Under the pieces are notes generated by a model. The model searched no databases. It was not told the DNA's origin and saw nothing but the letters and a program-made list of their open reading frames with translations. A stretch of DNA of 64,000 nt from IMG/VR virus record IMGVR_UViG_3300045988_042533, positions 1 through 64,000 of that record. The stretch is one strand, 5' to 3'. How positions within the stretch are numbered: the first letter of the stretch is position 1; every line of letters starts with the position of its first letter. Both the position numbers and the translations under genes were made by a program. The stretch comes from a virus. Of this stretch, positions 2,031 to 62,084 are shown piece by piece.

Positions 2031-2079
2031 AATAAAAGAGTGTTGAGTAATAGCTAAAGGATTAGTATCATCAACACTC
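2031..2079 (-). terminator. rho-independent terminator after the 4603-aa ORF
   Basis: GAGTGTTGA (2038-2046) pairs with TCAACACTC (2071-2079). The minus strand continues TTTTATTTATC. A GC-box copy abuts the stem. Confidence 0.6.
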
Positions 2080-2094
2080 TTCTACGGGGGAGCT
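2079..2094 (-). repeat. GC-box copy A (plus strand reads CTTCTACGGGGGAGCT)
   Basis: Perfect core plus AGCT extension. Intergenic, between the stop at 2103 and the terminator stem. Confidence 0.9.
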
Positions 2095-2102
2095 AATTTA
2101 TA

Positions 2103-8100: not shown

Positions 8101-11100
8101 TCCATATAAATAAGACCTCTACCTTTACGAGTTAATTCATCGACTAAAAGTTTTCCTTTTCTAACTTTACTAACTGTTTTATGTTTAATAAAATTAGCAT
8201 TAGAATGAGCACGAACATAATTTTCTGCAATATCAAAATTGCCAGCATAACTATTAAAACTATCTTTAATTTGATTTACAAGACTATCAAAACTTCCATC
8301 AGCTTTAACAAAGCTAGTACTATCTTTAAGTGCTCTGTTTGTTATAATCTTATTAACAGCATTTCTTCTCATCTTAAACCCTTCAACAAGAAAAGAATAT
8401 TTTATAAGGTCAACTGCTGCCATTTTAACAAGAGGATTAGTACTATTAAAAGCTTTATTGTAAAGCATAAAAGCAGTTTCTACATCAGTAGCATCATCGT
8501 TAAACAAAATAGATTGTTTTGATTGTCCTTTTGTTCTAGCTTCATAAGCATTATAAAGATTAACTTTAAGACATCCAAATATACCACTATCAACAGAATT
8601 AAGTTGTAACCAAGCAACTTTTTGAGCAGGACTTAGTTTGCTAAATTTATCTACTTCTTCTTTAGTAGGTTCAGCTATATTTTTACATTTAAATGGAATG
8701 TTTTGATTTCTATTATAACCAAATATTCTAATGCGTTCATCTGCTTCAGTAGTATCACTATCTACAACTTGTCTCCACTGACCATCAATTAAATCCATTG
8801 TAGTAGGAAGTTTCATAAAGTCAGTATCATTATAAGTAGCATTAAGAATATATTGTTTAAAATCTTTATATTCTTTTTCAGTAATATGTCTATCGAAACT
8901 AAATTTATCTTCAAGACTAAATACTATGTTTTTAAACCAATCAGTTTCAGTTTCAAAAAGCATACTATTTATCTTAGTACTAGTAGCAGTAGAATACTTT
9001 AAAAAAGCAGCAAGAGACTTATAAGAAGAATTACTAATGTCAGATTTGATAAAATTATCTACATCAACATAAGGAACACCTGTTACTTGATTTATACTAA
9101 TAATACCGGGATAAATACTTTCAAGCATACTCATATCATCTTTCAAAAGTATTGGATGCTTACCTCTGTCAGTTTGAATCAATTCATTAATATCATCAAA
9201 AACTTTATTTGTTTGAAACAATGTTTGTTTAGCACCAAATCTATCAGGATTACATACTCTAGCAAGACTGCCTATATGTTGAGCTAATTTATTAATATGA
9301 TTATAAGCTAAAAGAACTCTCATGTCAAACAATCCCTCTACGGGGGAGCTATAACCCTTAGTATTTTTATTAATTCTATTATAAAGTTGACTATAATCTA
9401 ACCATAGAGGGTTTTTATTAACATCAAATTTAGTATCAAATTGAGTATTTACTTTTTCTAATACAGAACCTAAACTATCTTCTTGTGTAATATCTAATCC
9501 CATGTCTATAGCAACAGACTTAATTGCTTCTTCAATAGGTTTATTACTATCTTCTGAATAAATAGACTTATTAGCATTATAAGCATCAACTATTCTACGT
9601 ATAGCAGGTTGCATGATAAATGCAATAGCAGTATCATAATCAATACCAATATCAGGAAGAGTTTTATATACAGCAAAAGTAAAATCATTTACGTTTGGTA
9701 TAGCACCTTCTTTCACAGCATCAAGAATATGAGCAGTTGTTTGAGAACTATAAGCGGTAAGAATTTTACCTGTTATGTTTTTATTATCATAAGTATAACC
9801 TATAGTTGTATGAGTTATTCTAACTCTATGATTACCCAAGTCTTCAACATTATCAGCTCCAAAACGTTTTTTATATGTTTCTAAATCATTTTCATTATTA
9901 TAATTATAAACAACATTAACGGCATACTCTTTATTGATAGTTGGTTTAACCTTGTTACATACTGAGTTGAATGTATCACGAGTTACACTAAAAGCTTTAA
10001 GTTTAGCACCAGACATAACATCTTCTTGATAAGCAGCTTGGTCCATAAAGTCATAAGGACTTCTGTTATCACGAACAGTCTTAATTGGAGAATTAGCAAT
10101 AAGTTTATTTCTAGCTTCAATTATATCGTCAAAGTTAGAACGAGAAAGATTCTCTTCTAGAGAAGAATCATCTTTAAGTATCTTTTTAAAATCATCAAGA
10201 ATACGATTATTTCTAGCTCTACGAGAATTAATTTTAGAAGCATCAGAATTAATAAATTCTTTGAAAGATATTAGACCAAGTTTTTTAGCTCTAGCTTCAA
10301 AATCATTAAGTCTTTTCTGTTGAACTTCTTTAATAGCGTTAGACTTCATTTGACGCATATACTTTCCATAGTTTTCAATACTATCACTCATAGCGTCATG
10401 AACTTCTAGAAAGTTTTCATCAGCTTCATCTAAAGTTGATTTGTTTGTTCTAACATAATCAGCAACAAACTTTATCTGTTTAATATAATCTTCTCTAGTA
10501 AGTTTACCATTTTCTTGTCTAGTAACTGTTTGATTAAAAGCAATATTAGCATCTTTAACTAATTGTTTGCTTTCATCAGATAGAGCATCATAAGCTTCTT
10601 GTTCCTCTTCAGATAACTCTGCTCTACTTTTATCATCAGCTTCTTTTATATAATTAAGAGCTTCCTCAAATTGTTTTTTAGCACCTTTAGGAAGACGTTC
10701 TGTTTTTTCAACTCCTCTATTAACATAATCAAAATAATCGAATACATCAGGATTTTCAACATAATCAATCTTCTGAATATGTTTGTTTCTATCAAGTCTA
10801 CTTTCATATTGAATACCATAAACAGAATCAATATCAAAGTCAGAACCCGTTTGAGAAACCCAATCGTTAGGAACAACAATAGTAGAACCACAACCATCAT
10901 CTATAAATCCTACTACTTTCATAACACAAACAGATTGCTTACCTTCAGTAGGAATACGATAACCTATGATTTCATCAAGTTTAGCTTCTTGAAGTTGTTT
11001 AAGAAGTTCTTCATCAGAATGAATATAATTTCCATCGTCATCTTTAGCAAAATTAAAATTAGCTTTAGGAAGCATAATCTCAATATAACGTTCTCCTTCA

Positions 11101-14100
11101 GGATGGTCTTCAGTTACAGGATGATAACAAAGTTCTTTAGAATAAGAAACTTCTTCTTTACCTGCCATCTTTTTGAATCCTACATTAGTAATCTGAGCTG
11201 CATGAAAACCTGGAAGAATTTGTCTAGTAATACCTCTATTAAATATTGATTGAGCAATACTTTCTAGTTTACTCATAGTATTAGAAAGTATAGCAGGCAT
11301 TTCAGCATTAGGTCTTTTAGTAATATTATTTATAGCTTGATTTTTAACAAGAGTTACATAATCAATCATATTACTATCAAGACCTAATCTCATACATTCT
11401 TCTCTAAGTTTATTAAAGAATACTTGATAATTAAGACCACTTATATTACCATCAGAATCAAGTTTAATATTACCGTTTTTATCAAGAGGAATATTTATTT
11501 CTCTACATATATCTTCAAAGCTCTCATAAATATTAGCTTCATAATTATTAAAGAAATCATCACGAGTTGCAGCTAATGGAGTACCATCAACAATATTATC
11601 AATCATCTTTTTAAGAATCTGAATACCAGCTTTATTTTCAGCATCAAGATGTTGAGGAGTTTCTTGCTGAGTATAAAGATGATTATAATCATATTCTTCT
11701 ATATAATCTTTAGCGTGAGCATTAAAGTCATCAATATTCTTCTGAGTAAGTTCACCTGTTTTTTCATCAAACAAACTAAGAACTCTTGCTTTACCTGCTT
11801 TAGAAGTTTCTTCAGTATTTAATTGGTCAATACCGTTTTCTTTCATCATATTGTAAACTTGTTCAAGTTGAGTACCTTTTATAAATTGAGGAACAAGAAC
11901 AAACTCAGCATTTTTAATTTGACGAGGAGCAAACGTATTTGTATTCTTATCAAAATACATATCATAATAGAAGTTCTTTTGAACTTGAACAAAGTTATCT
12001 AATTCTTTAGCAGAAAGTCTTTCTCCATTCATTATCTTTTTAATAAGAGGAAGATGGTCTCTAAGTTGACCTCTACCTGCAACACGTCTAATCCATTCTT
12101 CAAATGTAATATATGATTGAGCGTCATTGATTGTAGTTCTACTAAATCCACTCATAAGCTTTCTTGCAAAACTAACATCAAGATGAGCGTTTTTAACAAG
12201 GTCATGAACAAGACTTCCATCTTTATCTGTCAACTTATTAGTTGTATCTTCTGTATCAATCTTACATTCTTCAGATGTTGCTACAGTATTTTTAATAGTA
12301 ACACCATTAAATTTAGTCATTTGTTTAACATTAAGACCTAAATCAGTAAGATATTTTTGAACATCAGGATTATTAAGATAAGCTCCTTCTACAAGTTTAC
12401 TATCTTCTCTATAATCTTGACTATAATCAGCAAAACCATAAGGAACACCTGAAGCCTGACTTTCTTTAGCACGTTTAAGGAAAGTTTGAGTATCTTTATA
12501 AAACTTAGCATCACCTTCAAAAATATCATTAAAATTATAATAAGCAAGTCTATAATTAAGAGCAAAGTCATATATATTTTCATCACTATTCATAAGACCA
12601 GCAATATCAAGATTTTTAAATTGTTCAAATCTTTCTACTTGTTGATTAAGATAATGATTTATAAATTCATTAAGTTTCTCATTAAGTTTGGCTTCTTGAG
12701 TATCTGTAAGATTAACAGTTATATGACCTAGATTGTCAGTAGTATAGTGAATAAATGATTCATTAGCACCCCCGTAGAAGAAGTCTATTGTTTCATCTAT
12801 TATATCTTGACCGTAATTATGAATAGTTCCATCAGGGTCTGTAATACTAAATTTATCATCTGTAAATAATCTTCCTGTAAAATGCCAAGCACCTTTAGAA
12901 TCTTTCTCTATAAAATGTTTATGTCCTTTACCAACATGATAAACAGCATAAGCTTTTCTTGCAGATTCTTCATCAAGTCCCCAACCTTCTCTAAATTTAG
13001 GGTCTCCTGTTTTAACACCTTCAGGTTTAACTTCATTTTCAGTCCATAATATTATCTTACCTTCATCATCTGTTTGAAACCAAGTATTTATAGCATTAGC
13101 CATATCAGTAAGTTCTTGAACAAAAACATTACGATATTGAGCGTATAGAGGATGATTTATATTAAGTTTACGTTTAATTTCTACACCATTAATATTACCT
13201 TCTTTATAGGCTTTTCTTAATATAGCAGATTTAATAGAAGAAGTAATATTGATTGAATTTATATCTCCAACAATACTAGCAGTAGCATTGTCTATATAAG
13301 TTCTACCATAACTATCAAATTTAAGTTTACCTCTTATCATATATCTAGTTTCATTATTAGCTTCATCTTTATATGAATATCCTACTGAAACTACATCTCC
13401 TTCTTTAATATTATAACCTTCTAGAATATTATTAGGATAAACACGTCTATTTCTAATTCTATTAGATTGTAAATCACTAATCATTCTGTTATAATCTTTC
13501 TTAGAAGAAATATCAGTAAATTGACTAAGTTGTTCTTTACTATAATTATTTTCAATTTTAGAAAGTTTACTTAGTTCTTTATTAACTTCATTAGAAACTT
13601 CAGAAGCATTTTCTACAGTAAGAAGTTTTCCATATTTAGAATCATTATAATTATATCTAGCACTACGAACTATAAAGTTTTTAGGAGCATCAGAAGGAAT
13701 ACGCATAAAATATTGAGCAAAAGGAAGTTTTTCTTCAGCTCCTGAATAATCTTTCTCACAATTAAAATAATTAGCAAATGCAGTATAAACATAATCGCCT
13801 TGAGACATACCTGAATAAAGAACATTCTCTTCAGTGTTAGGATTACCTGCTCCATTAAACAGAGAAATAGATATTAGTTGACTAGCATAAGTTGTAGGAA
13901 CATACTTACCATTTTCATTGCGGAAAAGACCATAATTAATTATATTATTCTTATTATCACGTTTTTCAACAAGAATATTACTAAGATTGTATTGATTACC
14001 TTGAAATTTATAATCACCCCAATTCTGAAGGTCTTTATTTATTTTTCCTTCATAATTACTACTATTAAGAACATTCATTAATTCAGTAATCAAAGAACTA

Positions 14101-16028: not shown

Positions 16029-19000
16029 CTATCGACAAACTATTTCTAATTCACCTGAAGCAATCCTAGACGTTGCTATGGCTCTTTCCTGTAGCGGAAC
16101 GTCCTCCAAAGCAGCTGTTAATGACGGATATTCTCTGATTACACTAAACATGTCTTCATCATCATCTTCAATAGATTTTTTATTATATGTATTCAAATCA
16201 TTATAATTATCGTCATCATCATCTTCATCTTCTTCAGAAACTTGAACAGATTGTTCTTCTGTTTCTGTAGTTTCATTCTCTGTTTCAGTTGTAGATTGCT
16301 CATTAGTTGAATCACCTTCTACGGGGGTATTAGTTGTAGAAGTTGTACTATTAGAACTATTTGAAGTAGTATCAGTTTTAGCTTTCTTAAATACTTCTCC
16401 AAGTATATTAAATTCTTTAGCTCTAAGACTATTATCAGCAATGTCAAAGTTAAACAATTTAGATATAAATTGCATTATTCTTTGCCATAAAGTTTTAGCT
16501 TTTCCAACTTCTTCACCTTCAACTTTAACGTGATTCATATAAGATGCTAAAGCTGAACTAGTTAGAGATTCAACTACAAACTCTTCAAGTTTAATTTCAG
16601 AATCAGATATATCAGAATATCTTAAATCAGTGAGAAACTTTTTTAGTTCATCAGCTGTTTTATTATTAAGATTATAACCTCTTCTTTCATTAACAGCAGC
16701 TAAATTACCTGACTCTATATCAACTAAATCAAGTTCACTTTCTCTAAAAAAATCATCATAAACAGATTGAAGATTTCTTTTTATCTTTTTACCTTGATTA
16801 GTAGAAAGCTTAGTATGAAGTCTTTCGTGAATTAATATTCTAGCAGCTCTATTTCCACCACCTTTATTGGCATCAGTAGCAATATCTATAAATTCATCAC
16901 CTATTATAATTTCATGACTTTTACCTTTATTTATAGCTACAGCTTCTTCATTTGATTCTTTAAGAGCTTTATCATCATAAGTTACTTTAGCAGGAAATAC
17001 TTCATTAAGAAGAACACTCTTTTTATTCTTTTCAATAATATCAGCAACTTCTTTAGTTACTAGAGATTTAACTATATCAAGACCTTGAGTTTCACTATCA
17101 GATTTAGTAATATCTTGAACAAGCTTTTTTGTAGATTCAAATCTAGAGGATTTATTAGAAGGTTGATTATACTCTTCTACGGGGGTGCTAGTTTCATTAG
17201 TATCAACTCTATTACTTAAAGCAGTTATACCAAAACCTGCATTAAATTGTTTTCTAATACCTTTATCTCTATAATTACTACTATTTTCTTGGTCAAGATT
17301 AACTCTTACTAAATTATTACTTATGATAAAATCATTATAACTTTCAGCGTTAGTATGAAAACCAGGAATATTTTTATAAGCAGGTATATCAATACTAAAT
17401 TTACCTTTTTCAACATTAATAAAACTATTATGAATAAGAATATTAGAATTATTATCACTTTCAATAAGAGTTCTATTTATATTAAATCTAATATTATCTT
17501 TAATTATTTGTCTAAGTTTATCACCTACTTCGTTAAATTTATAATTAACTGCTTTACCACCTTGTTTTTCAACAAATGGAATTAAATCAGGAATTGGAGT
17601 TCCATTAGTTCCTTTCCTATAAAATGTAAATCCCACTTTATATCCATAGTTAATATAATAAGTTCCACTATTATCTTGACCAAATGTGATGCCATTAAAC
17701 AAGCCTTGGTTGCTTACATTAAAAGCAGTGTTTATAAAGTTTCTAAGTTCATTCCAATCTTCAGGAGATTGAACATTTTCTATTTTAGCAACAAGTTGTT
17801 CAACAACAGTATCTACAAGTTTGTCAAACATTTGACTTCTTGGAATAGAAACTTCTTTTCCTTTTCTAATATAACTTCCTTGAGCATAATGCAATGGGAA
17901 AGCTTGAATATAATCAATAGTTCCATTTTGATTTTCTATAGTCATATAAGTTTGACCATTTTTAGAACTATAACTACTTGTAGAGCTACGACCACTCGAT
18001 ATAACACTTCCACCACCAGTTCCAACACTTATTCTAGCAGAAACATTAGGAGATAAAGCTGATTGAATCGGAATTGCAACTTTTTCTGTAGCATAAACAT
18101 TTCCTTCAGAATCAGTTTCATTTCTATCAGTAGCTCTAATTATTTCTCCACTATTTATAGTATTTATTAGATAAGTAATATCAGGTTTGTTTACTAAATC
18201 AAGAACTTGATTACATTGACTTCTGAGTTTATCATACCATTCATCAAAACTACTAGAAACAACATCACCATCTTTAGCTAAATCTGCGTTATATTGCCAA
18301 AGTTTACCAAGACCTTCTAAAGCACGTTTATAAGTAATACGATTGTTATCTACAGATAAATAACCTTCTCTAATGGCTTCTTTAATTAGAGGATGATTTT
18401 GAAAAGCTTTAACATCATCTTTAGTTATTTCTTCAAAAGCAGCTTTATATATTATATTATTTAATGATTCAAATTCAGGAGTATCTTTATTAGCTATAGA
18501 TTTAAGCCAATCTTTAAAATCACCATCATTATTTTCATCACTTTTAGAAATAACATAATTCCATCCATCACGATTAATTTTCCAACGACCATGAACATCC
18601 ATATCAGGCATACCAATATAACCTACAGTTATACCATTATGTTTAGCTAACAAAACTTTAGTATTTTTACCAGGTTTTTGACTAAGTTCAAAAGTTATTT
18701 CATCATTAAGCTTAAGATTCTTTAGTTCATCTTCTGAGTGTTTAATATCATTAGGGTCTGAAATTATTTCACCAAGATTTGTATCAATACTTCTAGTAAT
18801 ATCTTCTCCAGCAGTATTTATAGGTTTTATAAAAGATTTATTTGCTCTAGCAAGAAAATCTATTCTACCAAGTTCAGAATCATCTATAAGTACTATATCG
18901 TTTTTAGCACTATCTGAAGTCAAATATGCTTTTACAGCATCAAATATGAAATTATTATATTCACCATTACTAGGTATAACTTTTTCTGCCCAACGAAGAA

Positions 19001-22000
19001 CATCTTCAAGTTTAACATAATATTTATTATTAACAGGTTTAATTTGAGAATTATCAGCATATTCTCTAACAAGATTATTAACTGATTCTGCAAAATTAGC
19101 ACCTATTTGAAAAACACCATTTACTACAGTACTACTAGAACTAATAATAACATCAGCAACAGCAGAAGCTTTAGAATCATTACTTTTAAGTTTACGTTTA
19201 AACGGAACTAATACAAATTGAACAGCGTTTTTAATAACATCTTCATCATAATTAGTTTTAGACATAGCATCTTTAAGAACTTGTTCTAGTTCTTCTATAG
19301 TAATATTTCTATTAGCTTTAACTGCATTTATAGCAGTACTTATTAATCCTTGTCTAATAGCAGCAATATCCTCAGCATCTTTTGGAATAGATAAATCTAC
19401 TACAGGTTTAGATTTTTGTTCAGTTGGAGAACTAGCAGGAGTTGAAGGAGTTGGAGTAGCTTGAGGTTGTAGCCCCCCCGTAGAAGAGGTTTGTTTATTG
19501 TCTTCTTCTTGACCTTCATTTTGTTTAGTTTCTTCTTCTGCTTGTTGAGCTTGAGTGGTATCTTGGTCATCTTTACTACCAGGAACTGCAACTTCACCTT
19601 TAGATATTACTTCAAATGTACCATCATCAGCTAATTGTATTATAGGTAGTTTTGTTACTTTAGAACCATCTTGTAATATGTTTTCAACACCATCATATAA
19701 ATCATCAGTTATTACTTTAGGGGAATTAGGTTGAAGAGTATATCTGTTGGTTGTTGTAGCTATTTTCTCAACTTTAAAACTAACATCACTATCAACATTG
19801 CTAACTTTACCTTTAACAAAGTCTATTGATATTGGTTTTGACATATCAATTTTTGACTTATTCTGTGTAGGTTTTTGCTTCTGTTGATTGGTCTGTGACT
19901 CTGTCTTAGGCTCTGTGCCAGCTTGTTTTGTTGCTTGTGGTGAATTATTCGTCTCAGCACTTTTAGGCGATTCTGTGGCTTCCTGTGGCTTCTCTCCTGT
20001 TGGTTGTTCACCTTTACTTTCATCAGAAGTTTCAGCTTCTTCAGCAGCTTCATCTTCAGATTTATCTTCAGCAGGTTGTTCACTATTAGGATTTTCTTCA
20101 TTATCTTTAGATTTATTTCTAGCCTCCTCAATACGCTTATTTATATCAAGCATTTCTTGAACTTGAACACCAAGACGATTATTAAGATTGTTAGATAAAT
20201 CTAATACATCTAAAGCTTCACGAAGACTATTTCTTTCAGCATCAGTTAATTCTGAAGTTACTTCATTAAATCCTTCTGTATCATCATTGTAATAAGCACC
20301 TACTGCATTTTTAATAACTCTAGAATCAGTTCTATCATATTTGCTAGCAAGTTCATTAATAGTTTTATAACTATTATCTATAGCTTCTTTTCTAGCATCA
20401 TTTAAAGTATTGTTTATAAAAGATACTTCTTGATTAAATGTTTTTGTATCTTTAATTATTTGTCCATTAAGATATCTATATTGAAGTTCAGCATTACTTC
20501 TACCTACAAGAAGTTTAGTAATACTTCCATTTTTACTTCCAATCTTATCTGCTTCTACAAGTCTTTTATTAAGGATTTTAGCATTTTCAACTCTAGCGTT
20601 TATTTGACTTGCTATATTTTCAGTATTTTCAAATTTAGCAAGTCTTTCATCTAGATTATTGTCTTCAGCAAACTTTTTAAGACCTTCAATAATCTCATCA
20701 TCCTTAATAGTTTCACCTTTTTCATTCTTACCACTTAAAAGATTATCAAATACTTCACCTATAGCTGTACGTTCTCTAAACACTTCACGTTTATCGTTCA
20801 TAGTATTATTAATCATAACAGCAGTAACTAAACGAAGGTCGTCTTCATTTAGCATTTCTTGATATTCTTTAAGTTGACGATTAATAGTATCTATACCAAC
20901 TTTAGCACTAATATTGTTTTTAAATTTTGGGTCAGTAAGAAGACGTTTACGTTCAGCATATAGTTCTCCCATAGTATTAGCAATAATACTTTTACTAGCA
21001 GCAGCTCTATATTGGTCTGTAGTAAATTCACTACCTAGAATCTTTTGAACTTCTTCATCTTGCATAGATTCTTCAATAAGATTATCAAGCCTAGACATAT
21101 TATCTTTGATAATCTTTTGTTGATTCTTATATTTAGTATTTGTATCAGCAATACTTTGAAGAAATTCTATAGGAACACGTTCATTATCCTTTCGAGTTAA
21201 TTGTGCTTTATCGTTTAAATCTATAAGTCTAGCAAGTTCTTCTTGATAAGTATTTATAGTAGATTTCATTCTATCAAGAAGTTCTTGTTGAACTTGTTTA
21301 GAATTAGCTTCACTATCCACAACTCCATTATCTACCATTGCTTTACGAACTTCATCAGACTTTATAAATTCTTCTAGGTAATCGTAATTACCTTTATGTG
21401 CAGCATTTAAAACAATGTTGTCTATAAAATCATGAGTAGCTTTTTGAGAAGCAGCAATTTGTTCATCAGGAGTTAAAGTTTTATCATTTTCTCCTGTAGC
21501 ATAAGGATTTTCACCTTTAGCTATTTTATTTTTTCTATCTATAAATAATTTAGTTTGAGTAGCCCAATTATTAATATCGTCTCTACGAGTTTTAATTTCA
21601 CCTTTTTCACTTAAAGACCAAGGGGAAACTTTTTTACCTTCACCAGTTTTAGAATTAACTTTTTTGTTTTGTCTATCTTCTATAGTTTGTTGGACTCTTC
21701 CAAATCCACTACCTAAATGATGAAATACAACTCCTCCTAAAACACCCCAAAAAGCACTATCCCAAAGTTGTCCGCTAGCTATATATTTAGACAGTCTATT
21801 ATCAAAAGAAGAAGCAGGCTCTTGATTCAAAAGATGTTTACCAACATACATACCTTCTTCTTGAGCTATATAGTTTACAGCTTCTTCAACACCTTCTGAT
21901 AATTCACCAGCTATAATAACTTTCTCAGAAGTCAATCTTCTACCAATATTCTTAGCTCTTTCTTTCCATTTGTTGACAGCAGCTTCAGCAGCTTTTATTT

Positions 22001-23194: not shown

Positions 23195-24937
23195 CTATTC
23201 ATTGTTAAGTTTATTAATTATAGATTGAACTAGATACTCATAAGCATTATTGAAATAATCAAAATCATATTTAGTTTGTTCATCTAATTTATCATAAACA
23301 CTCTTATTTACAGTTCCATCATCGTTATATATATTACCTACTTTAGCTATAGATGGAGCTACACGTTGATAAGCTTCAGGTTCTATTTCTTTCATAGCTT
23401 GCATAGCTACTATACTAGCATCTTGCTTAAGATTAACATAATTTCTTTTAGAACCATCAGGATTATACATATTATTTCTTAATTGACTAACAGTATCATC
23501 CATTATAAATTGAGCATTAAGATATTTTTGAGCTTCAGTTCTATCTATAACACCTTGGTCACGTCCGTTAAAGTTAAGAGTATATTGGTTAGTTCCTTCT
23601 ACGGGGGTGATAGTAGCTTTACCATTACTGGCATTTTTATAAGGTATTTCTCTACTATAATTATATTTAGACATTGTAGCAGCTTCTTTAATAGCTTTAA
23701 CTTGTGTACTATTAGCCCAAGAATCTTCAAGAGAATCACCAATTCTAGGGTCAACAATAAATAATTCAGCATTTTCAGTATCAATACCAAACCAATGTTT
23801 AGTATTAGGAATATAAATATGCCAACCAATTTTATCTCCACTTATAGCCTTTTTAATTCTAAGTTGAGCTTTTTCTTCAGTTGACATATTTCTAAGCATA
23901 GCTGTTAATTCGTTTTGTTTATCAACATTGTCAAGTTTTACCAAAGCAGCTTCTTTATCATCATTATCTCTATAATAAGTTTCATAATCTTGAAGTTCAA
24001 AAGAAGTTAATTGTCTTAGAACTCCATCTACTTCAGCTTTAGCAGTTTTTTCGTCACCTTGAGCTTCAGCTATTGCTTGTTTTTCTGTAATATAAGGAGC
24101 GTCAAGTATTTGAACATCTGTTGTAGTATCTTCAGGAATAAGATTTTTTTGAACATCTTCTAGCTTATTTGCAATATCAGCCATTTTAAAAGAATTATAT
24201 CCAAATTGAAGTGGGTCAAAGTTTTTTTGAACAATAGGTATTGCAGCAGCTTGTGGAGCTTTATCAGTTATTATTTGGTCTCCAATATTTTTAGCTCCTC
24301 CAATATAATATCCTATACCATTTCCATCAGAATCATCAAAAGTTACTTTTTGTGCATTACTAAATATTTTAAATTTATCAGCATCTTTCATATCTTTTCT
24401 AAAATAGATGTATGTACTTCCATCATTAGCATGTCTAATATTTACACCCATTTTATTTAAAATATCTTCGTCAAGTCCAGATATATGTTTAAATCTATCA
24501 AAACCAGTTTCTTTTCTTTCAACATCTTCAGCTAAAAAATCCATACCTAAACCATAACGTTTTATAGTTTTAGGAGAAAATCTTATTGCAGCATATTGAC
24601 TGCTAGTACCACCTAGATTATTAATCGTATTTTTAAATTCTCTAACATATCTGTTAATATATTGCCCATCTTTATCTTTTCTTAAATCAAGATTGTTTGT
24701 TTTAAGACCATATAAAAAACTAACAGCATCTTGTTGGTCAGGAGTAGCTTTATTAATTATAGCCTGATATTTACGACCTTCACTTTCAAGCATACCAACA
24801 CCTTTTTCAAGATTCTTTCTTTGAATAGGGTCATTACTTGTAAAACCTTTAGCATAAGTAGCTGCACCCAAATAATCATTTCTAGATATTAAATCATTAT
24901 AATGATTTATATCCATGTATTTAATATCTTGTATCAT
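23195..24937 (-). CDS. hypothetical virion-module protein (580 aa)
   Basis: Long ORF, tightly coupled to its neighbours (4-nt overlap upstream, 2-nt gap downstream). No motif recognised. Confidence 0.8.
   Translation of the reverse strand: MIQDIKYMDINHYNDLISRNDYLGAATYAKGFTSNDPIQRKNLEKGVGMLESEGRKYQAIINKATPDQQDAVSFLYGLKTNNLDLRKDKDGQYINRYVREFKNTINNLGGTSSQYAAIRFSPKTIKRYGLGMDFLAEDVERKETGFDRFKHISGLDEDILNKMGVNIRHANDGSTYIYFRKDMKDADKFKIFSNAQKVTFDDSDGNGIGYYIGGAKNIGDQIITDKAPQAAAIPIVQKNFDPLQFGYNSFKMADIANKLEDVQKNLIPEDTTTDVQILDAPYITEKQAIAEAQGDEKTAKAEVDGVLRQLTSFELQDYETYYRDNDDKEAALVKLDNVDKQNELTAMLRNMSTEEKAQLRIKKAISGDKIGWHIYIPNTKHWFGIDTENAELFIVDPRIGDSLEDSWANSTQVKAIKEAATMSKYNYSREIPYKNASNGKATITPVEGTNQYTLNFNGRDQGVIDRTEAQKYLNAQFIMDDTVSQLRNNMYNPDGSKRNYVNLKQDASIVAMQAMKEIEPEAYQRVAPSIAKVGNIYNDDGTVNKSVYDKLDEQTKYDFDYFNNAYEYLVQSIINKLNNE
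23596..23607 (-). repeat. GC-box copy G (CTTCTACGGGGG)
   Basis: Inside the 580-aa ORF, translated TPVEG. Confidence 0.9.
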
Positions 24938-26243: not shown

Positions 26244-29200
26244 TTATTTTCTTTTAATTAAATAACCTTTTCTATCATAATGTGAAAGGAATTGATTACG
26301 CTGTTTCCAATACTCATAATTTTTCATTGCAGTTTCCCATTTACTTCTAGCAGCAGAATAATCTGCATCATTAGAATAATTACTTCTTATAGGAGCAGCA
26401 CCAGGGTCTTTCATACCTTCTATGTTGTTCATTGCTCTAATAGCATTTATAACTCTTGGACCAAATTGAGTACCAAATGCCATCATACGATAAGGAGTAG
26501 CAGCATCACCAGCAGCAATAGTAGCCATAAGAGCATTTTCATCCTCAAATCGTTGACGAGTACTATTGAGGAAGTTATTAGCTGCACCTTGTAAGCCTTG
26601 TAGACTTGTAGCCCAAGCATTTGAACGAGCAAGTCTATTAGCATTTTCAGCATCAATACGTTTATTCTGAATCTCAGCAACATTCTGATAATACTGATTT
26701 CTAGCAGCAGCATTTCTAGCTCTAACTTGTTGTTCATTCTGAGCAGCAGCATTACGAAGTTCAACTTCTTTATTAGCTTTCTCATCCCAAAGCTTGTTAG
26801 TTTCCATCATAGCATCTGCATTAGATTGTTGCATACGTTGAACAGCAGTATTTGCACTAGATGTATTATTAGCTATTATTTTTTGAGCATTAAGACGATT
26901 ACGTTCTACAGTAGCTCTTTGAGCATCATTATGATAAGTAGTATCAAATGCTACAGGAGTTTCATCCACATAATTAGGAAGCTTATAATCATATTTAAGA
27001 TTCTTATAAGCATTTGCATTAAAAGCACCTAAAGCAAGACTTCCTGCTAAATCAGTACCGAGACCAATCCAATCACTGCTATTAACACTCATGCCATTAC
27101 GATTCCACCAATTATTGATAGGAGTTGTATTAGATGAAGTTTTTCCTGTTGAACTAAAATCTACATTTTCCCAACCTTTAGGTGTACTAAAATCCATATT
27201 AGGATATAAAGATTCAGGAGTACCAAAATTATTTGGGTTAAAAGATAAACCTTTGGCAACTCTTCTTTGCGCTCTAGTCATACCTCCATCATCAAATTTA
27301 ACTCTACCTCCACATCTAAAATATCTTTTATATGCAAGTCTTTTATAGTAATTTTTTACACTATCATTGGAATGTATAAGATTATCATAATATTGTTTTT
27401 TGGCTGTATCTTTTAAACCTCTTTGATATTGTTTAATACCTTGTTCGTTCCAATACTTTTGAAAGTTTTTATCGTTCCATTCTTTAATACCATCATTATA
27501 AACATCTTGTCTATGAGTTTTTTTATTAACATTATATAAGCCTCTTCTGAAGTAATCTACTGCATGATAATAAGGTGAAACATTATTAGGTATATTATTA
27601 TAATCATTGAGTAAAGCGGCAGAATCAAAAACACCATAATTTCTAAATGTATTAGCATTATGTTGAACTCGTTGTTCTTCTTTATCACCATCAATATAAC
27701 CTATAGTTCTACCATTTAATGTTTCGTGCGCTGGAATACCAAAAGCATAAGGTAATTGAGATTTGTTATATTTATTAAGTCCTGCGTTATAAGCTATAGA
27801 ATCTAACATATTAGCTGAAACAGGTCTACCGTTTACAATAACTTCTTTATTTCCATAAGGTGTTGCAAGAGTTAAATTAATTTCTTTATCATTAATAAAA
27901 CCACTATTATATTTACCTATACGATTAGCTACATTGTTAACCCATACTTCATGTTCTTCACTAGCTGCTTTAGTTGGAGAAACATTACCACGTATTCTTT
28001 TTGGAGAATAATACAAATTATTTCCTTCTTTATGTTGATTTAATTGTATAGCTTTATTTCCAACATTATAAGATTGAGTTTTTCCTTTAAGTTTTGCCCA
28101 TTGATTTATGGTAAACTTACTAATACTACCATCACTATTATATTGGACAAATTTATTTGCTGCTTGACTATAATATCCATGACCTTTTTTAAGTTTAGCA
28201 CCATTAGCATTATACCATGACTTAGTTTCAGGATTATAAGTTGGACCAACTTTTTTAATACCACCGTTCCTAAAAACATTATTATTGTTATCATAATTAC
28301 GTTTTAGAGCTTCTTGAATAGCAAATATTTTATTCTTATTAGCTCCTGCTTCAACAGCTTGAGCTGGACTAATACCATTAATCATAGGTTGAGCAGAAAA
28401 TATTCTAAGAGCATTACCTACTCTTTGAGCAACTTCTCCACCTTCAGCTTCTATTTCATTGTTACCAACTTTAATACCTATACCAGTTTGTCCACTTGGA
28501 TTAACTTGTTCGTGTGAACCCCCCCGTAGAAGAAATGTGTTGTTACTAATCCTTTGTGCAACTCCACCATCAGTTATCTTAATAGGAACTCTCTTTTTAC
28601 TTCTAGCTTTACCTCCATAACGCATTTCGTCAGTAGTGTTCCTATCTTCATAATTATAGTTACTAAGTAAATTATTAATTGCTTCTTGTCTTCTAGCTTC
28701 AGCCTCAGTATCAACATCTGCTTTATATTCATCATAGCTTCTACCTTGAATATCTTCTACTTGGCTATAACCGTTAACAGTATCATTTATAGGTTCAAAA
28801 TTAAAATTTTGTCTAATGTTATTAGTTCTATTAGCAGAAACTCTAGATTTAGTTCTACCTTTTCTTTGAAGAGTTTGAGCAGCTGCTCTTGTTTTATTCT
28901 TATTAGTAGCAACTCTTTGATTATTAGTAGTAGGTTGTGTAGAATTAGCATTTGATTGATTAGCAGTTCTGTTATTTGCAACAGGAGCTTGATTGTTAAC
29001 TATTTTTGTAGTATCAGTCTGATTGTTATTTTGAACTATAGTAGAATCATTTGGAGTTTGTTTAGCAACTTGAGTTGTATCATTCTTAACCTGTTGAGGT
29101 TGAGCTTTAGATTTAGGTTTGTTTACAGGTTTATTAGCAACATTGTTTTTTGTACTAACTGCTGTATTAGTTTTTGGTATATAACTTTTACCAGCTTCAT

Positions 29201-38740: not shown

Positions 38741-38756
38741 AGCTCCCCCGTAGAAG
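38741..38756 (+). repeat. GC-box copy J (AGCTCCCCCGTAGAAG)
   Basis: Intergenic, 37 nt upstream (in the minus-strand sense) of the ATG at 38704. Confidence 0.9.
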
Positions 38757-42645: not shown

Positions 42646-42651
42646 AACACA

Positions 42652-42663
42652 ATTAGTTTAAAG
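42652..42663 (-). promoter_or_regulatory. gene-start box (minus strand CTTTAAACTAAT, 6 nt before ATG 42645)
   Basis: 11 of 12 identical to the other boxes. The surrounding 24 nt (42651-42674) match 38710-38733 at 23 of 24 positions. Confidence 0.5.
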
Positions 42664-42675
42664 ATTAATACTAGT

Positions 42676-42749
42676 ACCCCCGTAGAAGTATGTTAGATGT
42701 AGATAAGCTACTAGTAGCATTAGCTTCATAACATCTCTTCTACGGGGGT
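42676..42749. repeat. 74-nt intergenic inverted repeat built from two opposed GC-box copies (K and L)
   Basis: ACCCCCGTAGAAG (42676-42688) and CTTCTACGGGGGT (42737-42749) are perfect complements. Inner pairs are AGATGT/ACATCT and AAGCTA/TAGCTT. Confidence 0.9.
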
Positions 42750-49121: not shown

Positions 49122-49132
49122 ACTTATATCTA

Positions 49133-50638: not shown

Positions 50639-50672
50639 ATACTAGCTCCCCCGTAGAAGAGGTTGCTAGTAT
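50639..50672 (-). terminator. hairpin (ATACTAGC/GCTAGTAT) carrying GC-box copy M in its loop
   Basis: 8-bp stem at 50639-50646 / 50665-50672. The loop contains CCCCCGTAGAAG (50648-50659). The minus strand then reads ATTTTAATTAT. It sits between the stop at 50684 and the start at 50623. Confidence 0.5.
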
Positions 50673-55192: not shown

Positions 55193-56550
55193 TAATCAAA
55201 TACTAAATCGTTAGCATTGAACTTATTATTAGTTGGCTTTGTTATACGCACAGTTCCATTAGTACCTTGTTGTCTGGATTTAAGTTTAAGGACTTTAACT
55301 TGATTCTCCTTAATTGCCATATCAACAATATCTTTATAAGTACCACCTGTAAACAGAAGCCAATTATTAATCATATTCATTTCCACTTGCTTTTCAAATG
55401 GAAGTTTGTTGAACAACATTTCAGCAGCAGAACTATAAGCATTACCTTCTTCGTCACTAACAGGTCTAGAAACAAAGTTATAAAAGTCATCTAGATTAAC
55501 TGTTACTTTCTGACCATTAACTTCTTTAACGAAAGTTTCAGGAAGAGAATATTGACCAATAGTTCTACCTTTAATCAAATTGTTTATATAGTTATAATAT
55601 TTATTAGCACTCTCAATTTCAGCTTCTTCTTGAGCTTTAGCTTGCTGAGCCATTTGCTCACGAACTTGTTTATCTTTCTCTTGAAGAGCTTCAAGACAAC
55701 TTTTAGCTTCATCATAAAGAGCACCACTATCTTTAAGATATTTAATATAATTCTCATTAACAGACTTATTACCAAACTCTTGAGCTGCCATAAGAATTAT
55801 ATTCTGCTGTTGAACTTCATTATCTTTATCAAGCTCAACTCCACTTCTATCAGGAACTTCACCAAAACCTTTAGCATTACCATGTATAGTAATATAATCA
55901 ATAAATGACTTAACTAGAGGATTATCATTATAAATTCTAGTATAAGCAGCTTGTTCAGCCTCAGCATAAGAATTAGCAATTACATCACTAACATAAGCTT
56001 TTATTCCATTAACATCATCTGTATATTCAATAGGATTACCATCTTCTCCTGTTATCTCAAGACCAACAGCTTTCTGAATATTAGCAAGGTTAAGTTCTGT
56101 ATCATCACCCTCTTCAACTTCAAGAGATTTAATCCAATCTTGAACATCAGCGGCAGCTTTAAATACATTGTTGTTTGCATCAACCAAATCACCGTTTTCA
56201 GCAACAGTATAAACTTGACCATCAAATTCAACTTGAGAACCAACTTCTAGCTCCCCCGTAGAAGTATCTTGGTTGCCATTATCTCCATGCTGTTGTTGAC
56301 CTTGTTGTTGTTGACCTTGGTTGCCATTATCACCACCATTGTTATCACCATTATTGTTATTATCTGGCTGACTAACTGGAGGATTTGTTGGAGGAGGTGT
56401 AGGCTGATTGTTATTCTGAGCATTAATATCAGCAGCTCCATTATTACCTCCGTTAATATCGGGAGCATTCATAGGATTCTTATCATTTGGTGCAGCTTGA
56501 CCACCATTATTAGAAGGTTGCTGATTTGTACCATCAAAATCTATCTCCAT
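55192..56550 (-). CDS. capsid-assembly-block protein with N/Q/G/P-rich N-terminus (scaffold or decoration candidate)
   Basis: 452 aa. It has about 95 aa of low-complexity N/Q/G/P and a later coiled-coil-like EALQEKDKQVREQMAQQAKAQEEAEIE. It lies between the portal and capsid genes. Confidence 0.7.
   Translation of the reverse strand: MEIDFDGTNQQPSNNGGQAAPNDKNPMNAPDINGGNNGAADINAQNNNQPTPPPTNPPVSQPDNNNNGDNNGGDNGNQGQQQQGQQQHGDNGNQDTSTGELEVGSQVEFDGQVYTVAENGDLVDANNNVFKAAADVQDWIKSLEVEEGDDTELNLANIQKAVGLEITGEDGNPIEYTDDVNGIKAYVSDVIANSYAEAEQAAYTRIYNDNPLVKSFIDYITIHGNAKGFGEVPDRSGVELDKDNEVQQQNIILMAAQEFGNKSVNENYIKYLKDSGALYDEAKSCLEALQEKDKQVREQMAQQAKAQEEAEIESANKYYNYINNLIKGRTIGQYSLPETFVKEVNGQKVTVNLDDFYNFVSRPVSDEEGNAYSSAAEMLFNKLPFEKQVEMNMINNWLLFTGGTYKDIVDMAIKENQVKVLKLKSRQQGTNGTVRITKPTNNKFNANDLVFD
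56249..56264 (+). repeat. GC-box copy N (AGCTCCCCCGTAGAAG)
   Basis: Inside the 452-aa ORF, translated TSTGEL. The local hairpin CTTCTA...TAGAAG puts the C-run in the loop. Confidence 0.9.
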
Positions 56551-59430: not shown

Positions 59431-61722
59431 TCAAAATAAATCTCTATTATAAAAGTTATCACTAGTTTCAAGAATTTTCTTCCTAGCACTAAGTTCTTTA
59501 GCAGCTTGCACATCACTTTGTTTCCATTGAAGTGCATGAATAATCATTTCTGAAACACGGTCAAAGTTACCAACACTATTCCATTTCTTCAACTCTAGAA
59601 TAGTTTGATAATCATAAATAGTATGAAAAAATAATTTAGGTTTACCATGTTCATCTTTGCCAACTTCACTATAAAGCATTTCTTTAAGCATACGAAGTCC
59701 TTCAAGAACTTTAGTAGAACCTGTTCCACTTCCACCGCCCATATTAACACCATAACTAGCACTAACATGAGCTTTAAGACTAGTATCCCATATTTCTACA
59801 GGGTCTTTCATTAAATATTTGAGAGCTTTCCATTTAGTAAAATTACTAACAGTTTCACCACGATTGACCTCAACACCAGTAGTTCCAATACAATTATAAT
59901 ATCTAGCTAGAAGATAACATATCTTATCAGCTTCTTCAAGTTTTTCAGGACGACCATAATAAGCGCAAACTAAAGCTGTTTTAAAGTTATTGTAAGGAGA
60001 AGGATTCATCCAAACTTTAATACTATTGTGAGAATGTTTGTTAGTAATGGCTGCTTTCTCTTTGTTAACACCAACAGGGTCATAACTAATACTATAAAGT
60101 CCAGGAGGTGTACCATAAGTAAGTTGACCTTTAGAATCTTTGTATTGTATCTTCATTGGATTAAACCATTTACGAATACAACCATGAGGATGTTCATTAC
60201 CACGTCTAGGAACACCTTCAATCCAATCATAAAAGTCTACATTATGTCTACCACCTTCTTTTTCTATTCTAGCATTAGTTTTAAATTCAACTCCACCTTT
60301 GTTGTCTTCATACAACATTCCATCAACATAAAACTTATAAGCATTATCAACTCTAAGCTTTTCTTCCCATTCCATAAGTTCTTCACTACTAAATAGATTC
60401 TCAGTAGCAGAACTAAATGATTCAGAAGGCATAAGAGCATACTGACCTAGATAATTAATATAATCAGCAAAAGTTTTAGCTTTTTCTTTTTTAATTTTAC
60501 GTTCACGAAGAGCAATACGAATACCAACTTCAATGTCTGAATTACCATCAGCATCCATAGCAATCTTATCACCAATTCTACCTTGAAGACCCCAACAATA
60601 AGGTTTAAAATAACCACAAACTTCATTCCTCATATCTTTATCCCAAACATTTTCAAAAGGCATAAAGTTAAAAGATTGAGGACTATAAAAGTTTTGTTCA
60701 AAGATTTGCATATTACCACTAGTAGCAGTACCCCAAGCACATAAGTTACCTGTTGTATAACTACCAGTTCTCATAGCAGGCTCAGTAACATTCATAAATT
60801 CATCAAAGTTATCCATTGTAGAAACCTCTTCAACTTTAACTTTGACAGCATCTTTACCAATAGCACAATCAGGATTATTCATTGCTGAAACACTAAACAA
60901 AGCACTATTCCAAGATTTAGGAGATACTACACCATTAGGAAGTTTATAACCTAATACAAAGTTTTCATTATTAAGAGAAAGAATACCACGCTTAAAGAAA
61001 GTTTCATTCTCATAGAAACGAAGATTAGCAATAGTAAAATCAGTAAGACCGCCTTTAGCAGTAAGAAACTTCTTATCAACAGCCACATGAATACAAACCT
61101 TATTAGGAGAAAGATTTATTTCATTAGCACTATCAGCAGCCATAATATAACTAAAACCTCCACGTCTAGTTTTATCTATAAGAAGATGAAATCCGTTAAG
61201 TATAGCAAATTCCATACAAGCAAAAGTCCAAAATTGAGCATCAATAAATTTAGGAAAATCATGATGTTTTTTAGCAACACTAGCTTTATCACTATAACTA
61301 ATACTAGATTCATCTAGCTGTTCCATATTAATATAATTAAGATAATTATACATAGAACCACTAATATGAAGATTTTCTAATTTACCATTACGAAGCAAAC
61401 AAGGAGCATCAAAACCATGTTTTCTTCTATATTCTTCTCTCTTACGAAGTTGTCTATGAGGAATACTATCTTCTTTAAAGAAAGTATATTTGTCATTAGC
61501 TCTATGGAAATCAGCCATTTCTGTAAGTTTGTGCGTATCTACAAACCTATCATCAAGATTAATATCCATAAGAAAACCTCCACTATCTCCAATCATAAAT
61601 AGATTATTCGGGTCATTATATCCAGCATCTCTAGCTCTTTTATAATGACTTTTATCCTCAAGAATATAACTAAGAAAAGGATATTCTCTAATAAATTTAT
61701 CAACTATCTCAACTTCTTCCAT
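59431..61722 (-). CDS. terL: probable terminase large subunit
   Basis: 763 aa. KTRRGGFSY resembles the deviant terminase P-loop K-[ST]-x-R-x-G-x-S (as in lambda gpA KSARVGYS). It is followed by the portal gene. Confidence 0.7.
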   Translation of the reverse strand: MEEVEIVDKFIREYPFLSYILEDKSHYKRARDAGYNDPNNLFMIGDSGGFLMDINLDDRFVDTHKLTEMADFHRANDKYTFFKEDSIPHRQLRKREEYRRKHGFDAPCLLRNGKLENLHISGSMYNYLNYINMEQLDESSISYSDKASVAKKHHDFPKFIDAQFWTFACMEFAILNGFHLLIDKTRRGGFSYIMAADSANEINLSPNKVCIHVAVDKKFLTAKGGLTDFTIANLRFYENETFFKRGILSLNNENFVLGYKLPNGVVSPKSWNSALFSVSAMNNPDCAIGKDAVKVKVEEVSTMDNFDEFMNVTEPAMRTGSYTTGNLCAWGTATSGNMQIFEQNFYSPQSFNFMPFENVWDKDMRNEVCGYFKPYCWGLQGRIGDKIAMDADGNSDIEVGIRIALRERKIKKEKAKTFADYINYLGQYALMPSESFSSATENLFSSEELMEWEEKLRVDNAYKFYVDGMLYEDNKGGVEFKTNARIEKEGGRHNVDFYDWIEGVPRRGNEHPHGCIRKWFNPMKIQYKDSKGQLTYGTPPGLYSISYDPVGVNKEKAAITNKHSHNSIKVWMNPSPYNNFKTALVCAYYGRPEKLEEADKICYLLARYYNCIGTTGVEVNRGETVSNFTKWKALKYLMKDPVEIWDTSLKAHVSASYGVNMGGGSGTGSTKVLEGLRMLKEMLYSEVGKDEHGKPKLFFHTIYDYQTILELKKWNSVGNFDRVSEMIIHALQWKQSDVQAAKELSARKKILETSDNFYNRDLF

Positions 61723-61724
61723 AC

Positions 61725-62084
61725 CTACAATATACTTATAATAAACAAAATGATAGATGCTGCACCAGCAACACCTATCACATTTCTTTGTTTAGTAACT
61801 TTATTAACCTTAGTTTTAAGTTGAACTATAGTTTTATCATTATCAGCTATAATGCAACTATCATTATGAACTATATTTCTAAGAACCTTATTAGCTTCTT
61901 TTTCATATTTAAGTTCCACTAATTTACCATTTACTATACGTAAATCATCAATAGAAACACTAACTGAATCTTGATTAACTAGCTCCCCCGTAGAAGATAT
62001 GTATTGATTACTCCCTGATAAGTCTATAGAACAACTTAACAGTACTATCATCGTCAAGTGTTTTAACTTCAATAACTTTCGCAT
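61725..62084 (-). CDS. lipoprotein with C-terminal TM segment (unimolecular-spanin-like architecture)
   Basis: N-terminal signal with lipobox-like LLSC, and C-terminal VIGVAGAASIILFIISIL. An alternative ATG lies at 62051. It overlaps the upstream small ORF by 77 nt. Confidence 0.55.
   Translation of the reverse strand: MRKLLKLKHLTMIVLLSCSIDLSGSNQYISSTGELVNQDSVSVSIDDLRIVNGKLVELKYEKEANKVLRNIVHNDSCIIADNDKTIVQLKTKVNKVTKQRNVIGVAGAASIILFIISIL
61981..61996 (+). repeat. GC-box copy O (AGCTCCCCCGTAGAAG)
   Basis: Inside the 119-aa ORF, translated SSTGEL. Flanked by TTGATTA at 61971-61977 and 62004-62010. Confidence 0.9.

Follow-up and report, generated by a model that had tools for sequence, protein, structure and literature searches.

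A dispersed word with lineage-specific dialects and alternating orientation in crAss-like phage genomes

A repeated word in an Obtuvirinae-like phage genome

No viruses of the human gut are more abundant than the crAss-like phages, yet how they replicate, control their genes and persist is poorly understood. We analysed a stretch of 64,000 nucleotides (nt), positions 1-64,000 of IMG/VR record IMGVR_UViG_3300045988_042533, hereafter the window, in which an earlier note had pointed to a GC-rich 12-nt word repeated on both strands, within and between genes. Judged by its sequence, the window derives from a crAss-like phage of the family Intestiviridae and is Obtuvirinae-like. Its capsid, portal and terminase region is about 75% identical in nucleotides to that of the Obtuvirinae ctcc615, cr271_1 and cr8_1, and its portal protein is 64-65% identical to theirs. 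A close relative is a 90.4-kb IMG/VR contig, 93.7% identical over the 38 kb compared.

The core word, CCCCCGTAGAAG, is present in 13 exact and two one-mismatch copies on the two strands of the window, the latter at 9335-9346 (GAGG) and 30157-30168 (CATA). Our pattern search reproduced the coordinates and strands of every copy listed before. When the window was shuffled 100 times with its dinucleotides preserved, a mean of 0.03 copies was found. A search allowing two mismatches added none, leaving 15 found against 0.38 expected; thus the word family is discrete and all-or-none, without a degenerate tail. The earlier estimate of about 30% G+C, made by eye, agrees with a measured 25-33%, and the chance expectation of far less than one copy stands. 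The full word in the window phage extends to about 18 nt, TAGCTCCCCCGTAGAAGA, with the prefix AGCT seven times, AGCA twice and AGTA once, exactly as counted before. From IMG/VR contigs about 90 kb long and low in G+C we gathered 110 distinct copies; their consensus is tAGCTCCCCCGTAGAAGa (the search pattern itself having fixed CT at -2/-1 for one copy per locus), followed by the weak TGT that had already been noticed.

Ten copies are coding, all of them within open reading frames (ORFs) on the minus strand. They use five of the six frames, read as PVE, PHR/PRR, FYGG, STG and LRGG; the sixth frame has a TAG. Third codon positions are identical at the copies while neighbouring codons vary. The five frames and the intergenic copies (Table 1) bear out the view that conservation acts at the level of nucleic acid. 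The intergenic settings were also recovered: a hairpin with a T-run at 2079, a loop at 50648 and hairpin arms at 42677/42737. For the three copies placed 21-37 nt upstream of start codons we measured 24-40 nt, or 20-36 nt when counted from the AGCT prefix.

Table 1. Copies of the word in the window, with their hairpins and their counterparts in related genomes
Feature	Position	Strand	Setting	Relatives
Copy 1	2079..2090	-	intergenic; sense to the 4603-residue gene, 12 nt past its stop	same placement after the giant gene in cr271_1, ctcc615 and cr8_1
Copy 1 hairpin	2037-2046 with 2071-2080		5' arm made of GAAG plus downstream bases; T-run after	
Copy 2 (CCCCCGTAGAGG)	9335..9346	-	coding, sense, SSPVEG; giant virion RNA polymerase-like gene	copy also in cr8_1, cr271_1 and ctcc615; exact GAAG in the close relative (93%)
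Copy 3	12769..12780	+	coding, antisense, FFYGGA	site kept in 3/3 Obtuvirinae
Copy 4	16316..16327	-	coding, sense, TPVEG; low-complexity part of the 2387-residue gene	absent in the close relative (3 core mismatches, 5 clustered differences overall)
Copy 5	17174..17185	-	coding, sense, TPVEE	site kept in ctcc615 and cr271_1
Copy 6	19475..19486	+	coding, antisense, SSTGG	
Copy 7	23596..23607	-	coding, sense, TPVEG; 580-residue gene	
Copy 8	28521..28532	+	coding, antisense, LLRGGS; 1405-residue gene	site kept in cr8_1 (position 29626, cr8_1 dialect) and jaberico
Copy 9 (CCCCCATAGAAG)	30157..30168	-	coding, sense, LPHRR	
Copy 10	38745..38756	+	intergenic, antisense, where a ~600-nt non-coding stretch ends; 40 nt upstream of the tail ring protein 2 start (gene 38027-38704)	equivalents upstream of the orthologue in cr271_1 and cr8_1
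Copy 11	42677..42688	+	intergenic; 3' arm (gene sense) of an inverted pair, 31 nt upstream of start 42645	degenerate (CCCACGTAGAAG) in the close relative
Copy 12	42737..42748	-	intergenic; 5' arm of the pair, 7 nt past the stop of a 77-residue ORF (42756-42989)	
Hairpin of copies 11 and 12	42676..42749		~74 nt, about -40 kcal/mol as RNA	
Copy 13	50648..50659	+	intergenic, antisense; 24 nt upstream of start 50623, in the loop of a 6-bp ACTAGC/GCTAGT stem (50641-50670)	orthologous intergenic sites at cr8_1 47677 and cr271_1 20443; stems differ yet remain complementary
Copy 14	56253..56264	+	coding, antisense, TSTGEL; 452-residue gene upstream of the major capsid gene	site exact in many diverged IMG/VR contigs; copy also in cr271_1 and ctcc615
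Copy 15	61985..61996	+	coding, antisense, SSTGEL; near the N-terminus of a 119-residue lipoprotein-like ORF	site kept in cr271_1, cr8_1 and jaberico

Two features adjoin intergenic copies. Next to copy 10, between the gene for a 714-residue protein and that for ring protein 2, lie 550 nt without ORFs (38757-39303). This stretch begins with a strong terminator-like hairpin (39243-39273) and a T-run, is less conserved (86.7% identity to the close relative) and gave no match in an Rfam search. A 21-nt AT-rich block, GTATTAATnTTTAAACTAATT in gene sense, recurs at 38710-38730, at 42651-42671 and, with three mismatches, at 30473-30493. It stands 5-12 nt upstream of the starts at 38704, 42645 and 30461, at two of them directly after a word copy, and may be a shared leader or a late promoter.

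Dialects, layout and turnover of the word

Eight Intestiviridae genomes were tested: the window, cr271_1, ctcc615, cr8_1, cr3_1, crAss002, LMMB and jaberico. All eight carry 15-30 copies, each genome in its own dialect that is near-uniform within the genome (examples are CCCCGTAAAAG, CCCCCGTAGAGG, CCCCTGTARAGG and the CCCCGTRGAGG of p-crAssphage), and shuffle controls in four genomes other than the window gave 0.00-0.49 copies expected. In the Obtuvirinae-like window the form is AGCTCCCCCGTAGAAG, with 15 copies in 64 kb. Among the Obtuvirinae, cr271_1 has 17 copies of the same form, ctcc615 has 16 copies in GAAG, GAAA and GAGG forms, and cr8_1 has about 27 copies of TAGCC(G/C)CCCCGTAAAAGgtatgta. 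The Crudevirinae are represented by cr3_1 (ttCCCCCGTA(G/A)AGGaa, 30 copies), by LMMB of the genus Carjivirus, the prototypical crAssphage type (ACYCCCCGT(A/G)GAGGATGGA, 29 copies), and by jaberico (TCCCCTGTA(A/G)AGGA, about 20 copies); crAss002, of the Churivirinae, has 28 copies of ttCCCCC(G/A)TA(A/G)AGGag. Within the 12-nt core the differences between dialects are transitions, without exception. Orthologous copies carry the dialect of their own genome, as at 28521 in the window and 29626 in cr8_1, and copies therefore change in concert.

We also sampled three other families. The Steigviridae crAss001 and tikkala (Kehishuvirus tikkala) carry 27 and 23 copies, respectively, of CTCCAGAAG, in both orientations and many frames, and neither has the word CCCCGTA. 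The first 50 kb of crAss001 hold 14 copies against 0.49 expected. This Steigviridae word equals that of the window minus CCCGT (CTCC-AGAAG). In the Crevaviridae, a GC-rich repeat of 35 nt, taatGGCCACAAGGGCGAGAGGTGTTCCGAAATTCGT, occurs ten times in cr127_1, in both orientations and twice inside a large ORF (record positions include 11356, 11912, 28698, 28871, 42040 and 42232, and some pairs are 170-560 nt apart); it may be the Crevaviridae counterpart of the word. In the Suoliviridae genome cr10_1 a degenerate word, TCCNNAGTAA, occurs 47 times, for the most part antisense to structural genes and without alternation; we do not regard it as an instance of the same phenomenon. The cr10_1 record also carries annotations for a sigma factor of RNA polymerase and for a transfer-messenger RNA gene (SsrA, 26352-26737).

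The word follows the phage and not its host. Bacteroides cellulosilyticus is the recorded host of both jaberico (Intestiviridae) and tikkala (Steigviridae), whose words differ, whereas tikkala and crAss001, the latter grown on B. intestinalis, have the same word although their hosts differ. It is thus unlikely that the host sets the signal, as it does for Chi, and the reader of the word is probably phage-encoded. A scan of 185,579 bacterial and archaeal species, one genome each, for the 17-mer TAGCTCCCCCGTAGAAG returned 28 stretches, which were scattered single matches and crAss-like contigs in low-G+C metagenome-assembled genomes. Mis-binned crAss contigs aside, no bacterial genome among these species repeats the 17-mer. 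Since its carriers are phages and the word is not repeated in these genomes, it is not a host uptake signal; the species scan and the differing words on one host species likewise speak against host mimicry and a host Chi. One of the contigs returned, JAFRAK010000011.1 (93,767 bp), is deposited in GenBank as part of a 'Bacilli bacterium' assembled from goat duodenum. It has at least 10 copies of the 17-mer, aligns to the structural genes of the window at about 73% identity and is a mis-binned crAss-like phage genome. Several further contigs assigned to 'Bacilli' and Acholeplasmatales look likewise mis-binned.

The layout was judged on 195 copies, which a loose family pattern picked out in the eight Intestiviridae genomes and which were placed against ORFs called in this analysis. 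The genomes are mutually related, so that tests of layout are not fully independent, yet the subfamilies differ at most sites. Although non-coding DNA makes up only 7.3%, it holds 59 of the 195 copies (30%), a fourfold enrichment; the other 136 are coding. Relative to local transcription 87 copies are sense and 108 antisense, and the flanks, TAGCT and an A at +12, are conserved to the same degree whether a copy is sense, antisense or intergenic.

The copies are spaced evenly and their orientations alternate. The coefficient of variation of the gaps is 0.5-0.7 in every genome, against about 1 for random placement; evenness reached P<0.05 in most genomes and became clearer once close pairs were merged. 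Neighbours have opposite orientation in 92 of 127 pairs from six genomes. Alternation was also seen in 19 of 26 pairs in crAss001 and in 19 of 28 in LMMB (z about 5, by our own arithmetic), and it stays at about 70% after pairs less than 400 nt apart are dropped. Close pairs, 35-82 nt apart, are all convergent, intergenic and hairpin-forming in six genomes, and convergent pairs equivalent to 42677/42737 are present in cr8_1, crAss002, cr271_1, cr3_1 and LMMB. Several antisense copies lie 18-40 nt upstream of starts and several sense copies 5-30 nt past stops. Sense-to-antisense intervals match antisense-to-sense intervals in length; thus the copies do not delimit units. The word is spread across all temporal modules.

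Comparison of orthologues shows how coding copies arise. In tblastn alignments of 84-residue and 124-residue segments around coding copies, orthologues without a copy have a peptide of unchanged length and no gaps, as in STGELEVG of the window against STEKLEPG of cr8_1. Therefore the copies came about by substitution and not by insertion. At 13 of 16 alignable comparisons within the Obtuvirinae a copy sits at the same codon where local protein identity is 30-63%, and two of these conserved sites are retained in jaberico as well. By these alignments the copies are old, having been retained at fixed codons over the long term.

Some further features of these genomes stand apart from the word. A tRNA-Gln (UUG) gene at 1856-1927 on the minus strand, the sole match in Rfam and tRNA scans of the window, occupies the gap in which the dUTPase-side genes and the giant gene converge. 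Terminator-like hairpins lie close to it at 1479-1508 (+) and 1721-1753 (-), and cr8_1 and cr271_1 have a tRNA-Gln at the equivalent place. Identity to the close IMG/VR relative falls to 72-83% at 24000-25200 and 48300-49200, from 94-97% elsewhere; these patches, neither of them at a word copy, probably represent parts of tail or structural genes that were exchanged or evolve fast. The DNA polymerase gene is annotated as two pieces in cr271_1 (33336-36033), cr3_1 (9108-12473) and cr127_1 (12271-15205), with gaps of 390-620 nt or a homing endonuclease between them, which fits introns in these crAss genomes.

Candidate functions

We tentatively favour the view, at slightly less than even confidence, that the word is a cis site, sensitive to orientation, which a co-evolving factor encoded by the phage reads on DNA. 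The site would be asymmetric, and recognition would take place on DNA rather than on any one transcript. Its orientation would matter to the factor and both orientations would be needed locally, hence one copy per roughly 3-6 kb with neighbours opposed. The factor might be an enzyme that runs along DNA and can arrive from either side, giving Chi-like control of end processing or recombination; alternatively, the word might serve a strand-specific event required on both strands, for example nicking or priming. With about 93% of the genome coding, most copies would be accommodated in genes through the choice of codons where this is tolerated, and the non-coding copies, cheapest to keep, would be worked into hairpins at gene boundaries as inverted pairs or partial self-complements. 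A DNA site with a co-evolving phage factor would account for the specificity, the dialects, the retention at codons and the indifference to strand, and the alternation suggests that orientation counts and that each point needs both orientations nearby. Among the roles proposed in the earlier note, a sequence-specific DNA-protein site is thus the one best supported; the protein itself is still putative.

Several observations weigh against this reading. No DNA-binding reader, a repressor included, was recognised in PHROGs, Pfam and PDB searches. The two helix-turn-helix proteins earlier proposed as binders gained no support: ORF 90-698 has no Pfam or PDB match, and ORF 44962-45300 has only a sub-threshold match to DnaA-C. 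Known Chi sites, at 5-8 nt, are much shorter than the word. Against the 93.7% relative, the 18-mers vary like their flanks (12/216 versus 219/3456, not significant), and the copies at 16316 and 42677 are lost or degenerate there through point changes; individual copies are thus dispensable in the short term. Shifts in identity to the same relative do not coincide with copies, and so give no sign of recombination hot spots. Two genomes have subtypes that depend on orientation. In cr8_1 the sense copies are CCGCCCCGTAAAAG (CCGCCCC) in 11 of 12 cases and solitary antisense copies are CCCCCCCGTAAAAG (CCCCCCC), while in crAss002 sense copies are mostly CCCCCATA (CATA) and antisense copies CCCCCGTA (CGTA). 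Such a split at one position is not predicted by a purely symmetric site in double-stranded DNA. These subtypes keep a hairpin in the antisense copies only, for which an RNA role, strand-biased mutation or coding constraint may be the reason. The reverse-complement strand of every dialect can fold into a small hairpin, with G.U pairs and a UACG loop (UACA and UAUG in variants), as in CUCUUC[UACG]GGGGAG of the window. The core transitions between dialects, being of the C-G to U.G type, would all preserve this hairpin and fit an RNA or single-strand reading too.

A bolder extension of the DNA-site reading, possible but doubtful, is that the word serves self-recognition in the Crassvirales. Each lineage would hold a private word on alternating strands, repeated every few kilobases and read by a co-evolving phage enzyme that tells phage DNA from the DNA of the host or of competing relatives. 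If so, protection from the phage's own nuclease, recombination or repair restricted to kin, and priming or nicking might be its uses. Shifts of dialect would then be barriers between the most abundant gut phages, and the Steigviridae (CTCCAGAAG) and possibly the Crevaviridae, with their 35-nt repeat, would hold versions of their own.

The hairpin is the basis of a different proposal, that the element acts as RNA or single strand: as a terminator, a pause site, a stability or processing element or a site for an RNA-binding protein, with sense copies acting on antisense transcripts or pairing with antisense copies. The Intestiviridae consensus is an imperfect palindrome. Folding energies range from -2.6 to -12 kcal/mol, and the reverse complement folds better in all but one (an LMMB variant) of seven dialect comparisons. 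Because this strand folds into a hairpin, a terminator-like scan flagged three intergenic copies as hairpins followed by T-rich tails. A GC-rich stem-loop with a U-run is seen at the intergenic copies 2079, 38745, 50648 and 42677/42737 and not at the 136 coding copies. For a 6-bp stem on 144 aligned copies, 65.3% of cells are paired against 62.0% after shuffling, which is modest support. The covariation score, 0.272 against 0.226 shuffled, was reached by no shuffle, slid controls were lower, and two outer pairs covary, a test that related sequences can pass without any structure. The antisense copies of cr8_1 and crAss002 keep the G-run and the UACG loop where sense copies often do not, and the enrichment at gene boundaries points the same way. 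However, the 87 sense copies cannot form the hairpin in mRNA, yet are equally conserved with the same flanks, and 77 of the hairpin-forming copies are intragenic, where termination would harm. Copy-specific complementarity, with partners shuffled within the genome, was inconsistent (z from -2.2 to +2.1). The cr8_1 hairpin, at -2.6 kcal/mol, is marginal, and pairing of sense with antisense copies in crAss002 would give an A.C mismatch. We consider this explanation unlikely.

Also improbable, in our estimate, is that binding itself is the function, the copies being sites for a global regulator or a chromosome organiser, either a stoperator-like repressor that would keep the phage silent while it is carried or lives as a phage-plasmid, or a protein of the ParB/KorB kind. 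Asymmetric sites of 12-18 nt, 15-30 per genome and genome-wide, with lineage dialects, match the stoperators of Cluster A phages (PMC6550527). A phage-plasmid lifestyle has been reported for Carjivirus (PMC10983915), the genus of LMMB with its 29 copies, and diversification into dialects is typical of immunity and incompatibility systems. Stoperators, however, mostly point with transcription, and here the ratio is 45:55 with alternation. Most copies are intragenic, plain binding to double-stranded DNA gives no ground for alternation, the repressor gene was not recognised, and the word is equally present in crAss002 and jaberico, which were grown lytically.

A further proposal makes the copies promoters of the crAss RNA polymerase packaged in the virion, alone or joined with terminators as cassettes, that co-evolve with this enzyme in the T7 manner; it is very unlikely. 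Near-identical copies in numbers of about 15-30, lineage dialects, intergenic enrichment, and the antisense copies upstream of starts and sense copies after stops would suit it. The reverse complement of the word reads ...TACGGGGGAG, and its G-start is reminiscent of the T7 +1 sequence GGGAGA. Against this, both orientations occur within long genes, the intervals do not delimit units and all temporal modules are included. In the crAss-like phage phi14:2, no upstream motif is shared by the transcripts of the virion RNA polymerase, and middle and late genes are transcribed by the host RNA polymerase. Scans for sigma-70-type promoters stayed at the level of shuffles. A phage transcription signal as the general role, one of the earlier suggestions, is unlikely, given the near balance of sense and antisense copies, their mostly intragenic location and flanks that are independent of orientation.

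Tiny mobile inserts, such as miniature inverted-repeat transposable elements (MITEs), REPINs or GC-cluster-like elements, or their footprints, can hardly be credited, although the copies are GC-rich in an AT-rich genome, form inverted pairs 35-82 nt apart, contain GTAG as REPs do and, in the window dialect, have TAG on either side of CTCCCCCG. The in-frame insert once proposed is contradicted by the equal-length peptides of copy-less orthologues; copies sit at the same codon despite 30-63% protein identity, the flanking TAG is absent from other dialects, and gain and loss proceed by point changes. No RAYT or IS200/IS605-like transposase is annotated in nine Crassvirales records, in which not every ORF was searched. 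Finally, that the enrichment arose by chance, from composition or from a recurring peptide can practically be dismissed in view of the shuffle controls, the five frames, the intergenic copies and the identical third codon positions; only the preference of coding copies for STGE and SPVEE frames speaks for it.

Whatever its function, the word is a cis signal under strong selection that all the tested Intestiviridae genomes share, with 29 copies in the prototypical-crAssphage-type LMMB. It provides a concrete handle on a putative trans-acting factor and is represented in cultured isolates, in crAss002 and jaberico and, as the Steigviridae word, in crAss001 and tikkala. If it marks self DNA or sets immunity or incompatibility, it bears on the coexistence of related crAss phages, on the classification of metagenomic contigs independently of host and on phage engineering.

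Comparison with known systems

The signal has apparently not been described before in crAss-like phages. We found no description of it in the literature on the word, on crAss promoters or motifs, on repressors and on over-represented words, the culture papers on crAss002 and Carjivirus included, in a search that most papers in subscription journals lay outside. The literal 12-mer appears only in a variant Staphylococcus aureus type III-A CRISPR repeat, ATTCGATAACTACCCCCGTAGAAGAGGGGACGAGAACT (PMC6070637), a match that we judged to be coincidence.

The likeness is great to the DNA uptake sequences (DUS) of Neisseriaceae and the uptake signal sequences (USS) of Pasteurellaceae. These, too, have a core of 10-12 nt with weaker flanks, occur in both orientations and inside genes in tolerated frames with one frame blocked by a stop, form inverted pairs as hairpins at gene ends, and have dialects that follow phylogeny. 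Even spacing of USS was reportedly noted by Karlin et al. in 1996. DUS dialects co-evolve with their receptor, and inverted pairs stand at gene ends (PMC3630211). Uptake sequences, however, number thousands in a cellular genome and serve transformation via ComP, whereas here 15-30 copies lie in a phage with no known uptake; moreover, neighbouring crAss words alternate and crAss dialects differ by transitions only.

Stoperators are 20-30 asymmetric 13-bp sites whose subcluster consensus tracks the cognate repressor (PMC6550527; PMC9283540). Like the crAss word, they are phage-borne, similar in number, asymmetric, genome-wide and lineage-specific in consensus. Unlike it, they point with transcription and are mostly intergenic; the crAss word alternates, is 70% coding and comes with no recognised repressor.

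Chi sites share with the word that they are asymmetric, orientation-dependent, over-represented and dispersed, and Chi is read by an enzyme travelling along DNA. If both orientations were required close to every break, alternation and even spacing would be accounted for, and by analogy this layout would be compatible with action on a translocating helicase-nuclease. Chi is set by the host enzyme, RecBCD or AddAB, and is abundant in the host genome. In contrast, the crAss word is 12-18 nt long, bound to the phage lineage and not repeated in bacterial genomes.

HIP1 of cyanobacteria is a hyper-abundant, short GC-rich word under selection, without established function (PMC5861425). It resembles the crAss word as a selected word in and outside genes whose function is not established, but it is a perfect 8-bp palindrome, linked to methyltransferases and found in cellular genomes. 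REP and REPIN elements and the GC clusters of yeast mitochondria share a GC-rich, GTAG-like core, hairpin doublets and residence in the non-coding DNA of compact or AT-rich genomes; they are, however, mobile insertions, moved by RAYTs or by unknown means, whereas crAss copies arise by substitution at conserved codons. Promoters of the T7 group are near-identical over about 17-23 nt, number about 15-20 per genome and diverge in specificity between relatives, but they all point with transcription and lie upstream of genes, which the crAss word does not.

In conclusion, the word falls outside the definitions of Chi by length and host origin, of REPs and MITEs by the lack of insertion, and of T7-type promoters by orientation. 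In anatomy it is closest to the uptake sequences and also close to the stoperators, and it is a member of neither. Its even spacing and alternating orientation are the layout of no described phage element.

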